Made by a program: the position numbers and the translations under genes. The notes beneath the pieces were generated by a model, which ran no database searches, had not been told where the DNA came from, and saw only the letters and a list, made by a program, of their open reading frames with translations. 64,000 bases of DNA from Bacteroidaceae bacterium (lineage in GTDB: Bacteria; Bacteroidota; Bacteroidia; Bacteroidales; Bacteroidaceae): positions 11,389-75,388 of the forward strand of contig JAGCPY010000039.1 in assembly GCA_017965425.1 (NCBI GenBank), in the 5' to 3' direction. The first letter of the stretch is position 1. Each line of letters begins with the position of its first letter. Below are positions 30,601-33,004 of this stretch, in pieces.

Positions 30601-33004
30601 AGCCAAGGGCTGCATGAGCACCCCAGTCAGCACCGCCGCAGAAGAAACGGCCTGTGCCTACATTATATAAATAGAAGTCGCCGGCGGCAGGCACGTTGCC
30701 CGTGAACACGTCAGCCTGCGTCTCGGCATTAGCGATGCGGCGGTTCAGACGCAGTGCTGACAGGGCGTTGTTGACTTGTGCGGCGGTCGTGCCGTTGGCC
30801 AGGACGTTGTTGGCCTCGGTGACATCAACTCCGTCTGCCTGAGCAAAAGGAATGGTAGCTGCCAGGAAGGTCACATCGGCAGCCTCAGCATTAGCACGTG
30901 CGGTATTCAGGGCATTCGTCTTGGCTGTCAGCTCGTCTGTGTCAAGGGACTCGCGGACGGCGATGGCTTCATTGAGCGCCGTGTTGAGGGCGTTTTGCAG
31001 AGCGGTCGTGGTCTGTCCGCTGTAGGCCTGGGCAGCAGTGATGGCAGCTTCGAGAGCGTCGGTGAACTGGCTCAGATCGGGCAGACCAAGGTAGTAGAGG
31101 CGGAAGTTGTCGAAGCAGTTCCAGTCTTCACCATTCTTGTTGTCCAGTTTCATGCCGATCGTCAGATTACCATCTGTGACAATAGTCTGAATGGGTTCGT
31201 TCTCGTAATATCCTTCGCGGAAAGCAATGGAAGCTTTACCTTTTCCATTGGGATAACGATAGGTCGTTCCATTGATATCTACGCTAATGTCAGCGTATGC
31301 GGCAGGCAGGGTTGCAGAAAGTTGAGGCAACAAGTAGGCTTCCGTGTTATTGATGTAGTACTTCGTACGCTGTATGTCATTGCTACCCGCTCTCATTTGT
31401 GCAATAAGATAATCGCTATTGTTACTTTGGCTGATACGATAGTAACCTTGTACGCGGAGTTCATAGACGCCGTTTTTCATGCCAGTGAACGATTGATGGA
31501 TATTGAAGTTGGCGTTCCACACTTCAGCGCAGTTGTTCGAGCCGTCTGCATCGTGGCACCATCCGTTACCCGGACGCCAGTTGGTATTGTCGGTGTTCTT
31601 CCAGGAGTTCTGTTCGCCATCATAGCGGTCGAAGCCTTGGTTTTCGATGAGGTAAGTGACATCCACAGGATTGGAGGAAGAGGCCACGGACAGGTCTTCG
31701 CGAACGTTCCTGGGGATGAACTGCCACTGAGCACTCTTGTTCGAAGGCAGCGAGCCAGCCTCCAGACGGGTCTGGCCGTCCTTAGCCTGCAGGTATTTGT
31801 CTCCGTTCTTCAGGGTGTATATCTTCTTGGCGTTGTCAATACATTCAAAAGTCCAGGCCGTGGGAGCGTTGTCCACATAGACCGTCTCGCCATTGCCGTC
31901 GGCGATGAAGATACCCTTGCCGTCGCCATTGACATTTGTGACCAGCGTGAGTGTGCCGTCGCCGGCATTGTTCACGGCGATCACCATGCCGGCCTTGTCG
32001 AAACCGCCACGGGTGGCATAGTTATTACTGCGGGTAATGTACATCTCCCGCTCCACATTGTACACGTAGTACTGACCCGTCACGGGTTCGCTGGGAGCCG
32101 AAACCGAGATGTTGCTGTTCTGAGCGATAATCTTGTTGCAGAGGGTTGCACCATTATAGTTGCTGGAACCTGCATAATCCATCAGGATGATACCCGTGGG
32201 ACCAGGATTGGCATCAATGGTATTGAGGGCAAGCGTGTTGCAAGTGTTGGCATTACCTGTAATGTCATCGCTCAAACCAGGAATCAACCCGGGCACATAA
32301 CCAGAGGTGTGATTGATGAACATACGATTGGAGCTCGTGTTCTTGCGCGCCTCTGCGAGGAGATCGGTGATAGCAGTTGACTTAGCACTTGTGTCTTCTA
32401 CCTTGTAGTAGTCCTGAACCACGAAATCAATGCCATTGGCAGACTTGACATCGCGAGAGGTGTTGTCACCCCAATAACTAATGGTATATCCAGAGGCAAA
32501 CTCATCGCGGCTGAGGATAATGACCTTTCCACGGACATCACCCAGACGGAGGTTCGTTCTGAAAGGAATCACATAGTCGGAGAATGAGTTGATAACGGCA
32601 GCTACCTTGCTTGCCCAACTGTCACCACCATCTTCTTTGCGCATGAGGACGATGGCGAACTCACTTCCGTAGGTGCTCAACCGGCCGGTAATGGTTGTGA
32701 GGGCTGCGCGTAAAGTAGTGTTCGTTGCCAAAGTGCCATGATTGATGGTACAGTCATCACCGCTGTCTGTAGGGCGAAGGTCAAAGACTCGGACACCTGC
32801 ATCCCATAAACCTGCGATGTCCTTGTCCTGGCATTTGCCTATCGAAAGGCTCTTTGTTGCCGCATCGTGCGCTCCAGGCAGCGACATCTGCGAAATATAG
32901 ATGTTGTCGTTGAGGCCTGTCATCCATTGTTTTAGATCGACATCAGCCACGGCATTTCCTATGCTAAATAGGAAGCCGAGTAGTAAGAAAAAGATCTTTT
33001 TCAT
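27626..33004 (-). CDS. Giant T9SS cargo protein C: PI-specific phospholipase C domain, three lectin/beta-sandwich cassettes, a pre-CTD domain and a CTD
   Basis: Signal peptide MKKIFFLLLGFLFSIGNAVA. Residues 22-296 align motif by motif with Bacillus-type PI-PLC (SLPGAHDA, RVFDLR, TINHG, LRLGDVRGKVIILSR, SYWGDN, VVQDYYKV, FINHTSG, IILMDYAG). Three cassettes end DNFRLYYLG, DNFRLIFKG and DNFRLTYLG. The CTD is ...VYNMAGQRVAAPNKGVYVVNGKKMLVK. Confidence 0.9.
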   Translation of the reverse strand: MKKIFFLLLGFLFSIGNAVADVDLKQWMTGLNDNIYISQMSLPGAHDAATKSLSIGKCQDKDIAGLWDAGVRVFDLRPTDSGDDCTINHGTLATNTTLRAALTTITGRLSTYGSEFAIVLMRKEDGGDSWASKVAAVINSFSDYVIPFRTNLRLGDVRGKVIILSRDEFASGYTISYWGDNTSRDVKSANGIDFVVQDYYKVEDTSAKSTAITDLLAEARKNTSSNRMFINHTSGYVPGLIPGLSDDITGNANTCNTLALNTIDANPGPTGIILMDYAGSSNYNGATLCNKIIAQNSNISVSAPSEPVTGQYYVYNVEREMYITRSNNYATRGGFDKAGMVIAVNNAGDGTLTLVTNVNGDGKGIFIADGNGETVYVDNAPTAWTFECIDNAKKIYTLKNGDKYLQAKDGQTRLEAGSLPSNKSAQWQFIPRNVREDLSVASSSNPVDVTYLIENQGFDRYDGEQNSWKNTDNTNWRPGNGWCHDADGSNNCAEVWNANFNIHQSFTGMKNGVYELRVQGYYRISQSNNSDYLIAQMRAGSNDIQRTKYYINNTEAYLLPQLSATLPAAYADISVDINGTTYRYPNGKGKASIAFREGYYENEPIQTIVTDGNLTIGMKLDNKNGEDWNCFDNFRLYYLGLPDLSQFTDALEAAITAAQAYSGQTTTALQNALNTALNEAIAVRESLDTDELTAKTNALNTARANAEAADVTFLAATIPFAQADGVDVTEANNVLANGTTAAQVNNALSALRLNRRIANAETQADVFTGNVPAAGDFYLYNVGTGRFFCGGADWGAHAALGFPGILVTLEAAGEGVYKLNTHLRNGDDNGNYKEYLNYSGYCDTWTSDAWKFVSQGDGKYNIVRSANDANLLGYEGGTYNNVITSCVTATGPTNQWKLVTKADRDALLATATADAPQDASYLIKSPNFSQREDVSAWTFTNASIWGRGDNHPDFAIESYNSTSATVEQTVTGLPAGTYELKVQAFYRDGNFANQANILAGGGDARQLATLYAGTKSALIQNVSGGADQAPGMGRTSAVGYMPDGIDDACLYFQSGLYWATLDEIVVGQDGTMTIGARKTEKLNDGDWMVLDNFRLIFKGVSIDLSGVKADLLAKINEATTLLNDLGLNLSFLATVKNNGQNVYDNSQDADEIVDATNALQTAINQVTNTNTSNDLTAFKQTMTKATPEGIDVNGYKAAVEAETDGSAFAATVANQLFLLRSERKINALRMPDIYTGSAPAVGKVYLFNLGTGMFLGAGSDWNTHAAVDQVGIEVELVANGNGYIMKTPWGSFNPSPYVDTNAQTVYMFEAVAGKTNVYNILEGYDLLGWNPNGKTDGKKYWNNISNVTGASADDPNYQWKIITAAERETLLRQAAEQNPVDVSYLINNPSLIRLPGDEMWIKVRDGGNAARVSSIGEDDGNRRPDYAWEFYEPNSFSFSQQLSGLRPGKYEVSVQAFYRHGNGETQATAVNNGETLGQLAYLFANDQQTLLPNIASVRDLVPGIGDLRATNAGEFPNMPQSAIEYFEVGAYKTTVQVEVGTDGQLNIGVKKDSRSLAGDWVVLDNFRLTYLGMPAITIAETDDAAPSELNVPVTVTLTRTLIGGQWNGFSLPFSLSADQIAASDLNGAEIKQFNSVNANIITLEDATEIVAGDPYLIKPAASVVNPEFDGVVVVVIDEAEHVKGTGDYTFAPHLYNTSLATDGSVAYVSTTNSSIKKLTSGSIKGLRSIFQVPTANGVKPLVVRFGGDADAILSVDAEGNITEGAVYNMAGQRVAAPNKGVYVVNGKKMLVK

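Follow-up and report, generated by a model that had tools for sequence, protein, structure and literature searches.

A predicted phosphatidylinositol-specific phospholipase C fused to lectin-like cassettes and coupled to alpha-mannoside utilization loci of Bacteroidales

Polysaccharide utilization loci (PULs) are understood as systems of glycoside hydrolases (GHs), lyases and esterases for polysaccharides. What, then, is a phospholipase C specific for phosphatidylinositol (PI-PLC, or PLC) doing at the end of one? The question is raised by a 64,000-nucleotide stretch of DNA from a Bacteroidaceae bacterium (contig JAGCPY010000039.1, positions 11,389 to 75,388), referred to below as the window, in which the gene for a 1792-residue protein, protein C, follows a SusC/SusD pair and GH92 and GH76 genes. 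An earlier note, made from the letters alone, had read protein C as a PI-PLC fused to three lectin-like cassettes and a type IX secretion system (T9SS) signal, and the locus as an alpha-mannan PUL. We report that the catalytic domain is a distant new member of the family of bacterial PI-PLCs (EC 4.6.1.13 type), that the locus belongs to the alpha-mannoside class of SusC/D PULs, and that functional coupling of the PLC to such PULs is well supported.

Protein C was taken from the list of open reading frames (ORFs) and their translations, and the identical protein is present on six public metagenome contigs. The parts of the gene that bear most directly on the question are as follows.

27626..33004, minus strand: whole gene, encoding a signal peptide, the PI-PLC, three lectin-like cassettes with linkers, a C-terminal domain, and a short tail like the C-terminal domain (CTD) of T9SS cargo
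32942..33004, minus strand: residues 1-21, Sec-type signal peptide, MKKIFFLLLGFLFSIGNAVAD..., without a lipoprotein Cys; read from the translation
32117..32941, minus strand: residues 22-296, bacterial-type PI-PLC catalytic domain; from PDB and Pfam matches, an AlphaFold2 (AF2) model and a family alignment

All ten blocks by which the domain had been recognized in the earlier note are found: WMTGL, SLPGAHDA, RVFDLR, TINHG, AIVLMRKE, LRLGDVRGKVIILSR, SYWGDN, VVQDYYKV, FINHTSG, and IILMDYAG. In a phmmer search of the PDB, residues 25-280 align with residues 11-278 of the Bacillus thuringiensis/B. cereus PI-PLC (PDB 3ea3, E=5.6e-23), and the domain matches the Staphylococcus aureus enzyme at about 1e-19 and Listeria PlcA at 3e-16. 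The AF2 model, built on an alignment of 29 relatives, has a pLDDT of 89.9, places a helix at residues 2-15 of protein C, and matches B. cereus 3ptd/1ptd with TM 0.77-0.80 (3ptd, TMq 0.77 and TMt 0.80; Foldseek E=5.9e-21). Over the characterised bacterial PI-PLCs, structural superposition gives 21-27% identity and TM 0.72-0.81. The note had allowed that a homology search might place the domain in a non-PLC clade with its catalytic residues misaligned; it aligns instead with bacterial PI-PLCs, with those residues in register, and the two His, the Arg and the final Asp claimed for it are all there. The equivalences below were read from the phmmer/PDB alignment, the roles of the B. cereus residues, catalytic or inositol-binding, being those that we take them to have.

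His46 and Asp47 (GAHDA): B. cereus H32 and D33, kept in the window protein
Asp75 and Arg77 (FDLR): B. cereus D67 and R69, kept
His89 (NHG): B. cereus H82, kept
Arg166: B. cereus R163, kept
Asp198 and Tyr200 (VQDYY): B. cereus D198 and Y200, kept
Asp276 (MDY): B. cereus D274, kept

In the alignment of the 29 relatives, each of His46, His89, Arg77, Asp47, Asp75, and Asp276 is either invariant or conserved to 90% or more, and the residues that contact inositol (Arg166, Asp198, and Tyr200) vary little or not at all. B. cereus Lys115 is replaced by Arg122, itself nearly invariant in the family. The eight-residue Vb segment, between strands V and VI, is present and ungapped relative to the Bacillus enzyme in the multiple sequence alignment, where Listeria PlcA is gapped; in the AF2 model a strand at 181-189 pairs with 192-198. 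A missing Vb has been linked to poor cleavage of glycosylphosphatidylinositol (GPI) anchors (PMC5773145, citing Wei et al. 2005). By alignment and model, residues 22-296 are a Bacillus-type PI-PLC domain whose active site is intact.

Does the gene belong to the PUL, or does it merely follow it? The PLC gene is the last of nine co-directional genes, in the order GtaA-like, TIG, SusC, SusD, DUF4973/BT_3044-like, GH92, CBM9/BNR, GH76, and PLC. The successive gaps are 22, 29, 91, 77, 86, -26, 11, and 57 nt, and a TAnnTTTG promoter box occurs in none of them. The tail position, the 57-nt distance from the GH76 stop and the lack of a box in that gap had all been noted before and stand; Pfam confirms GH76, GH92, SusC, and SusD in this tight cluster. 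Given the common direction, the short gaps, and the conserved synteny described next, the PLC gene is a member of the SusC/D-GH92-GH76 PUL.

The earlier note had called for a survey of PLC genes beside GH76/GH92 PULs. Relatives of the PLC were confirmed at 356 places in a collection with one genome per species, and the best 80 loci were analysed for synteny by tblastn of the window proteins and by precomputed Pfam annotation. Nearly all 80 lie in metagenome-assembled genomes (MAGs) of Bacteroidales, many from ruminant gut samples. The family itself comprises 731 cluster representatives at 50% clustering (E<=1e-10), many of them multi-domain. The syntenic arrangements, with the identity of each PLC to that of the window, are given by locus.

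L006: CBM9-GH76-PLC, 67% identical
L009: SusC-SusD-DUF4973-GH92-CBM9/BNR-GH76-PLC, 61% identical
L010: GH92-GH76-PLC, 56% identical
L019, L021, L024, L030, L034, L057, L069, L087, and L088: (GtaA-like)-TIG-SusC-SusD-DUF4973-GH76-PLC, 34-37% identical

For the last nine, the MAG labels are Muribaculaceae, Bacteroides sp., and Barnesiella, and in three further PLC clades a GH92 gene is directly upstream, divergent, or about 1.2 kb downstream. The synteny is recurrent, with at least three GH76-linked and three GH92-linked clades in a neighbour-joining (NJ) tree, and the GH76-PLC adjacency is found in distant relatives whose MAGs bear the labels of several Bacteroidales families. In an unbiased Pfam census of immediate neighbours, no family is upstream more often than GH76 (9 of 61), GH92 is next (3), and the downstream side has no comparable enrichment (GH43 in 5 of 70, aldose epimerase in 4 of 70). 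Where the upstream sequence extends over 2 kb or more, tblastn places GH76 directly upstream in 9 of 72 loci, and GH76 or GH92 lies within 10 kb in 20 of 80. Some close relatives of the PLC have unrelated surroundings, so that the PLC-GH76 link is frequent but not universal.

The GH76 proteins of L006 and L009 occupy the same slot before the PLC and are just 22-23% identical to the window GH76, while the flanking CBM9/BNR proteins are 69-74% and the PLCs 61-67% identical. This looks like non-orthologous replacement of GH76 within one slot. Since the pairing is kept although the GH76s are only 22-23% identical, selection for the pairing itself is suggested.

What could a PI-PLC contribute to such a locus? 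PI-PLC catalysis uses the inositol 2-OH as nucleophile, and this hydroxyl must be free. In the GPI anchor, with its GlcN-alpha1,6-inositol linkage, the 2-OH is free, whereas the actinobacterial phosphatidylinositol mannosides (PIM), lipomannan (LM), and lipoarabinomannan (LAM) carry mannose on inositol O-2, and the mannosyl inositol phosphorylceramide of yeast (MIPC) and the glycosyl inositol phosphorylceramides of plants (GIPC) carry a sugar there. It follows from the need for a free 2-OH that GPI-type substrates are the best mechanistic fit, and from the substituted O-2 that PIM/LM/LAM, MIPC, and GIPC should resist cleavage unless trimmed beforehand.

We give an even chance to the proposal that the PLC and GH76 are co-secreted front-line enzymes which free and fragment mannose-containing, inositol-phosphate-anchored glycoconjugates of eukaryotic membranes, with GH92 trimming and SusC/D importing the products. 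Protein C would be exported by Sec through the SPI-type signal read from its sequence, and would then cross, or attach to, the outer membrane by means of its short T9SS-CTD-like tail, which the adjacent GH76 and CBM9/BNR proteins have in common with it. The three linker-spaced cassettes may attach it to eukaryotic or microbial surfaces rich in glycans, in place of the reduced Trp-based insertion elements; the absence of the membrane-insertion Trp residues of the Bacillus enzyme is consistent with targeting by the cassettes instead. General base/acid catalysis by His46 and His89 on the inositol 2-OH would cut the inositol-phosphate-lipid bond, freeing from the membrane the glycan-inositol head group of, presumably, GPI-anchored mannoproteins or free GPI-type glycolipids. 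To judge from families and gene order, the tailed GH76 (of endo-alpha-1,6-mannanase or GPI-core type) and GH92 would trim the released mannose-containing glycan, and SusC/SusD with the DUF4973 and TIG lipoproteins would capture and import it. GH76 enzymes of the Dfg5 type cut the GPI core, whose glycans are recognised by CtGH76 (PMC12295086); a fungal phospholipase C releases GPI-anchored wall proteins (PMC11685838). The substrate may be of fungal, protozoal, or host origin, or may be a plant arabinogalactan protein. Plant GPI-anchored arabinogalactan proteins are considered because a divergent GH43 and a downstream GH127 are conserved in syntenic loci: in L087/L088 (11368-15967) the genes after the PLC encode an aldose 1-epimerase, a protein of 438 residues without annotation, and a GH127-like protein, and a GH43 gene lies divergently upstream as in the window.

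It is tempting to go further, and we do so tentatively, as a possibility that we think somewhat improbable: these loci may form an unrecognised PUL class for glycosyl-inositol-phospholipid anchors, in which the PI-PLC detaches the glycan, the co-secreted GH76 cleaves the GPI core, and SusC/D imports the product. The PI-PLC would then have the role played in other PULs by endo-glycanases or endo-N-acetylglucosaminidases (ENGases), the aglycone being a membrane lipid, and GH76 would cut Man-alpha1,6-Man, or Man-alpha1,4-GlcN as in Dfg5. If this is so, GPI anchors, whether of proteins or free glycolipids of fungi, protozoa, plants, and host, would offer the Bacteroidales of gut and rumen a dedicated nutrient niche. 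Apart from this reading, a phospholipase C kept as the partner of GH76 would carry the logic of PULs over to glycoconjugates with a lipid anchor. It would also reveal a way for these abundant bacteria to strip GPI-anchored proteins or glycolipids off fungal, protozoal, plant, or host membranes, with a bearing on rumen fungal and protozoal turnover, on how GPI-anchored proteins of the host are shed, and on what the many divergent GH76s do. The PLC domain, the cassettes, and the tailed GH76 are expressible targets.

A number of observations weigh against the proposal of paired, co-secreted PLC and GH76. No GH76 or GH92 lies within 10 kb in 60 of the 80 PLC loci, and the closest relative, L007 (83-84% identity), as well as L004, L008, L011, and L012, is not adjacent to GH76. 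The PLC domain barely reaches the Pfam model PF00388 (PI-PLC-X; 23.3 bits, cut-off 23.1), and a scan with NCBIfam gave no model matching the protein. The Vb region has a pLDDT of 71-79, that is, moderate confidence only. In the multiple sequence alignment, the elements by which the Bacillus enzyme binds membranes, helix B with Trp47 and the rim loop with Trp242, are not conserved: around helix B the protein has no Trp and falls about 10 residues short of its relatives, and the rim loop reads PGLIPGL, also without Trp. Because these elements are not conserved, interfacial activity on intact membranes is uncertain. As to export by T9SS, the last 71 or 225 residues of protein C match neither PF18962 nor TIGR04183, TIGR04183 scores on the relatives and on the neighbouring protein p1306 stay below threshold (about 14 bits, where the cut-off is 23, with E near 0.03; p1306, E=0.035), and no T9SS core genes are found among the scanned ORFs of the 64-kb window. 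The conserved GH43, GH127, and aldose epimerase genes near syntenic PULs are unexplained by a fungal-mannoprotein picture; they hint that plant or other arabinose-bearing glycans are part of the target. Finally, we infer the substrate, and the activity is a prediction.

How do other explanations fare against the same evidence? The PLC could be a general membrane-attacking or PI-scavenging enzyme, acting on plain PI or lyso-PI of eukaryotic cells such as yeast, protozoa, plant, or host debris. The gain would be inositol phosphate and diacylglycerol, or cell lysis; the cassettes would be merely adhesive, and adjacency to the PUL would reflect co-regulation upon meeting mannan-coated cells, with no hand-off of glycan. 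Bacterial PI-PLCs do cleave PI, lyso-PI, and GPI alike (PMC5773145), many family members stand alone or in unrelated contexts, and a family of 731 representatives is large and architecturally diverse. Immediate same-strand adjacency of GH76 and PLC is nevertheless kept across deep divergence and through non-orthologous GH76 replacement; moreover, because the two enzymes carry the same export tail, they would be placed on the same extracellular substrate, so that we consider general membrane attack or PI scavenging unlikely. A different kind of doubt concerns the PUL itself. The PLC-lectin gene might have no functional link to it and be an independent gene for a secreted adhesin or enzyme that happens to follow, like those of p1306 and p1021 nearby. 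The downstream genes of the same cassette/tail family do have promoter boxes of their own, and close relatives of the PLC occur in other contexts, but the 57-nt gap has no such box, and the synteny recurs in at least three GH76-linked and three GH92-linked clades of the NJ tree; we consider a chance neighbour very unlikely.

Other rivals change the substrate. GH76 and GH92 might degrade the mannan part of an inositol-phosphate glycolipid other than GPI, such as actinobacterial PIM/LM/LAM, fungal MIPC, or plant GIPC; GH76, GH92, and PLC would formally cover backbone, branches, and anchor. LM consists of an alpha-1,6-mannan backbone on a PI anchor, and inositol sphingolipids of plants and fungi abound in the guts of herbivores. 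The mycobacterial GH76 LamH is reported to release arabinomannan from the lipoglycans LM and LAM (PMC11233589). Against this, the residue set of the cyclising mechanism that needs a free inositol 2-OH is fully conserved in the window PLC, and no D-arabinan enzymes were seen. We have down-weighted LM/LAM and GIPC/MIPC, whose substituted O-2 is incompatible with that mechanism, to a decidedly unlikely class of substrate. The domain might also have drifted to a non-inositol phosphodiester, for example the Man-1-phosphate-6-Man bridges of yeast phosphomannan, and act as a mannan-debranching phosphodiesterase. Such drift would suit the location inside an alpha-mannan-type PUL, the threshold-level Pfam score, and the 25-27% identity to characterised enzymes. 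It does not suit a fold that matches PI-PLC end to end, nor the full or nearly full invariance, across the family and all of its GH76-linked clades, of Arg166, Asp198, Tyr200, Arg122 (for Lys115), and the two catalytic His. With the inositol-binding residues invariant, a phosphomannan phosphodiesterase is down-weighted to the point of being highly improbable.

In the upstream-neighbour census, one PLC relative lies directly downstream of a gene for myo-inositol-1-phosphate synthase. Some members of the family may serve the inositol-lipid metabolism of their own cell rather than foraging.

With what known systems can the locus be compared? The PI-PLCs of B. cereus/B. thuringiensis (1ptd, 1gym, 3ea3), S. 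aureus, and Listeria (PlcA) have the same single-domain imperfect TIM barrel. The window PLC shares with them the His/His/Arg/Asp catalytic set and the inositol-binding residues, both are secreted, and the Vb segment is common to it and the Bacillus enzymes and absent from Listeria PlcA. It differs in coming from Gram-negative Bacteroidales at the low identity given above, in lacking the Trp47/Trp242 anchors, in being extended by about 1500 residues of cassettes and a CTD-like tail, and in being encoded by a PUL rather than a virulence regulon. The yeast alpha-mannan PULs of Bacteroides thetaiotaomicron, MAN-PUL1-3, reportedly the subject of work by Cuskin et al. in 2015, likewise combine SusC/SusD, GH76, and GH92 under a hybrid two-component regulator. 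We know of no PI-PLC in MAN-PUL1-3, and their surface enzymes are lipoproteins, whereas the window GH76 and PLC have an SPI-type signal and a CTD-like tail. The window locus further adds the GtaA-like, TIG, DUF4973, and CBM9/BNR genes, and its GH76 is very divergent (E=1.7e-10 to PDB 4c1s, which we take to be BT3792).

The fungal proteins Dfg5/Dcw1 and CtGH76 (PMC12295086) and the Aspergillus fumigatus phospholipase C PlcH (PMC11685838) follow the same logic, in that GH76 is paired with GPI and a phospholipase C releases GPI-anchored wall proteins. They act in endogenous wall biogenesis, whereas the window activities would be bacterial, extracellular, and catabolic; the likeness proposed is one of biochemical logic. 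Similar in construction are the multi-modular T9SS-linked enzymes for carbohydrates of rumen Bacteroidetes (Ca. Paraporphyromonas polyenzymogenes; PMC5831590), which are also large secreted proteins of ruminant-gut Bacteroidales with catalytic and binding modules and a C-terminal sorting signal. In the window protein the catalytic module is a phospholipase C, and the tail is a short form of about 28-35 residues that falls below the thresholds of hidden Markov models (HMMs) for the type A CTD. The expanded extracellular PI-PLCs of Ceratocystis (PMC5773145) are secreted enzymes of bacterial type with Vb, proposed to release the GPI-anchored proteins of another organism; they are single-domain fungal proteins, without a lectin fusion or PUL context. 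The earlier note knew of no PUL-coupled PI-PLC-lectin fusion, and our literature searches on PI-PLC with PUL, GH76, Bacteroides, or Prevotella found no description of one either; a search on DUF4965 returned fungal secretome papers only. The combination seems to be new: a PI-PLC that is a conserved, GH76-paired PUL component, its fusion to repeated beta-trefoil/carbohydrate-binding module (CBM) cassettes, and the short CTD-like tail on the secreted members.

How might such an enzyme be held at its substrate? The rest of protein C is built as follows.

31031..32092, minus strand: residues 305-658, cassette 1, a beta-trefoil-like part plus a CBM-like beta-sandwich; from the internal repeat
30692..31030, minus strand: residues 659-771, linker 1, Ala/Thr-rich, presumed helical; from sequence and repeat analysis
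29651..30691, minus strand: residues 772-1118, cassette 2; from AF2, Foldseek and the internal repeat
29297..29650, minus strand: residues 1119-1236, linker 2, Ala/Thr-rich, presumed helical; from repeat analysis
28274..29296, minus strand: residues 1237-1577, cassette 3; from the internal repeat
27713..28273, minus strand: residues 1578-1764 (about 190 aa), C-terminal domain of unassigned family; from blastp and C-terminal translations
27629..27712, minus strand: 28-aa tail AVYNMAGQRVAAPNKGVYVVNGKKMLVK, T9SS-CTD-like (motif D/E-like), a putative sorting signal; from inspection and recurrence

Self-comparison bears out the three cassettes of the earlier note. They are about 350 residues each and 26-35% identical to one another (E 1e-25 to 1e-65): cassette 1 matches cassette 3 at E=4e-29 and cassette 2 at E=7e-26, and cassette 3 matches cassette 2 plus linker with 35% identity at E=2.5e-65. 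A homologous Ala/Thr-rich linker precedes each of cassettes 2 and 3, linker 1 being homologous to linker 2 within the repeat 686-1100 versus 1146-1573; linker 1 has no Pfam match, and we infer its helical character from composition. The first half of the cassettes gives RicinB_lectin_2 (PF14200) matches below threshold (E=0.004-0.04, 15-18 bits, cut-off 25.6; cassette 1, E=0.04), with just one conserved Q-W in the trefoil half in place of ricin-type QxW repeats. The second half matches no Pfam family at the sequence level, and an NCBIfam scan gave no model for the cassettes. The AF2 model of cassette 2 (pLDDT 87.4) has two subdomains, the first resembling the beta-trefoil protein cocaprin (7znx, TMt 0.68) and the second beta-sandwich CBMs (CBM61 2xom, E=1.1e-6 and TMt 0.63; CBM16 2zey, TMt 0.59-0.61) in Foldseek searches. 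'Lectin-like' is a fair description on the strength of this model, and glycan binding is putative. Homologues of the cassettes occur in proteins of 450-600 residues, one labelled a Prevotella MAG protein, and most of them end about 15 residues past the cassette in IYNLQGxxVxxxxKGIYIxNGKKxVVK.

Dockerins are found among these relatives. In place of the tail of protein C, the close cassette relative P0121 (78% identity) and the PLC homologue of L009 have dockerin-type repeats (DVNxDGxITIADVTALVNIILGK) at the C-terminus, and a neighbour gene in L004 has a weak Dockerin_1 match. This suggests that dockerin and tail endings are alternative anchoring modes in related rumen Bacteroidales.

The C-terminal domain of protein C has no Pfam or NCBIfam match, and its C-terminal 208 residues retrieve 13 homologues, none of them named. 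The same type of domain precedes the tail in p1021 and p1306, as judged by reading the C-terminal translations. By blastp, p1021 aligns along protein C up to the C-terminus, p1306 aligns with protein C over the last 55 or so residues only, and p1306 and p1021 align with each other over about 220.

Is the tail a secretion signal? By inspection, KGVYVVNGKKMLVK, with its pattern GxY...K..K, fits the two motifs that close a type A CTD within roughly its last 22 residues, D (GxY) and E (conserved Lys). The T9SS signal of the earlier note survives as a short motif D/E-like tail and not as a PF18962/TIGR04183 detection; a canonical T9SS CTD on protein C was considered and is rejected at the HMM level. 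Type A CTDs are some 70-100 residues long, and in the orthologues just about 35 residues are conserved after a low-complexity linker, which suggests from sequence that the full Ig-like type A CTD is absent. The type A CTD has a seven-strand Ig-like fold, and the last 22 residues of that of Porphyromonas gingivalis HBP35, which comprise motifs D and E, are enough for GFP to be secreted (PMC10202324). Similar tails are present on six further window ORFs, namely GH76, p1306, p1021, ORF 57153-60170, partial ORF 415-882, and, more weakly, CBM9/BNR. The tail ends 52 of the 80 PLC relatives, and every PLC-adjacent GH76 in the syntenic loci carries one. The GH43 encoded at 55756-57105 (plus strand) has a canonical Por_Secre_tail (29.3 bits, cut-off 27), so that the organism presumably makes T9SS-type cargo. 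On this sequence evidence a short CTD-like sorting signal is plausible, and such a tail, overlooked by present HMMs, would mark many secreted proteins in these genomes. ORF 57153-60170 (plus strand), which follows the tailed GH43 gene, encodes 1005 residues with the short tail RGLYIQDGQKVLVK and has no Pfam or NCBIfam match.

The remaining genes and signals of the cluster, from the PLC stop region upward, are these.

27568..27606, minus strand: GC-rich hairpin, a possible transcript end or REP-like element, 18 nt past the PLC stop; RNA fold -34 kcal/mol, z=-3.0
33005..33061, minus strand: GH76-PLC intergenic gap, 57 nt, without a TAnnTTTG box by motif scan
33062..34660, minus strand: divergent GH76, 532 aa, with catalytic YDD motif, SPI-type signal and a C-terminal tail like that of the PLC; Pfam PF03663, E=4.9e-15
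34669..36573, minus strand: CBM9-like/BNR-like protein, 634 aa, with a tail-like C-terminus; Pfam CBM9_1, E=2.4e-10
36548..38893, minus strand: GH92 alpha-mannosidase family protein with SPI-type signal; Pfam E=2.6e-167, TIGR01180 782 bits
38980..40080, minus strand: DUF4973/BT_3044-like lipoprotein, presumed surface glycan-binding protein; Pfam, N-terminal lipobox Cys
40158..42404, minus strand: SusD-like lipoprotein; Pfam SusD_RagB, E=1.4e-59
42463..45618, minus strand: SusC-like TonB-dependent transporter; Pfam Plug and CarboxypepD_reg
45648..47426, minus strand: IPT/TIG-domain lipoprotein; Pfam TIG, kept in syntenic loci
47449..49899, minus strand: glutaminase-A-like (alpha/alpha)6 protein (DUF4964/DUF5127/GtaA_6_Hairpin), first gene of the cluster; Pfam E=6e-139
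50278..51303, plus strand: divergent GH43; Pfam, PDB 3akf E=2e-31
51639..55676, minus strand: hybrid two-component sensor/regulator (HTCS), with a TAACTTTG box 32 nt upstream; Pfam, motif scan

In the match of the window GH76 to the GH76 mannosidase 4c1s, YDDQMW is aligned to YDDNVW. The CBM9/BNR protein is conserved in L006 and L009, and the GtaA-like protein is 59-62% identical in syntenic loci; a PDB sequence search found no match for either of the two, and NCBIfam gave no model for the GH76, GtaA-like, and DUF4973 proteins. The PDB entries matched by the divergent GH43 are described by their depositors as arabinofuranosidases and xylosidases of family 43. The N-termini mark the GtaA-like, TIG, SusD, DUF4973, and GH43 proteins as lipoproteins; GH92 begins with a plain signal peptide, and CBM9/BNR, GH76, and PLC combine such a peptide with the tail. 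TAnnTTTG boxes lie 32-60 nt upstream of each of the HTCS, p1306, and p1021 genes.

At 36548-36573 the GH92 stop region overlaps the CBM9/BNR start by 26 nt, consistent with translational coupling. The hairpin past the PLC stop has no U-tract. Inverted copies of AGACCCACCCCACCCC at 27464-27479 and 27595-27610 flank the PLC stop region, each in a CCCTCCC-loop-GGGAGGG hairpin, and could be a REP-like element or paired terminators. Scans of the window for sigma-70 promoters and intrinsic terminators gave counts not above those of shuffled sequence and were uninformative, and an Rfam scan of the whole window gave no match.

Two tailed neighbours lie beyond the PLC gene.

19195..22260, minus strand: p1021, a paralogue without PLC, with signal, two cassettes, C-terminal domain and tail; blastp to protein C 34% over 842 aa, E=2e-111
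22771..26691, minus strand: p1306, a Big_2 plus F5/8-type-C protein with the shared tail and preceding domain; Pfam, blastp, own TAATTTTG box

The box of p1021 is 60 nt upstream of its gene. As a secreted or surface protein, p1021 may bind glycans of the target on which protein C acts. Just downstream of the PLC gene, a small ORF at 27209-27457 (minus strand), called as 82 residues on three independent contigs, has no Pfam match. The 517-nt spacer between it and p1306 holds a long palindrome at 27054-27166 that is built from 11-nt units in tandem. Those of one arm are of GGTGAGGGAAT type, and the other has four copies of TCCCTCACCAT; the 42-nt arms are 93% complementary, and the palindrome has no Rfam match. 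Elsewhere in the window and unrelated to the PLC, DUF4956 and VTC-domain genes at 1805-3476 (minus strand) adjoin a gene for a DUF2490 outer-membrane beta-barrel.

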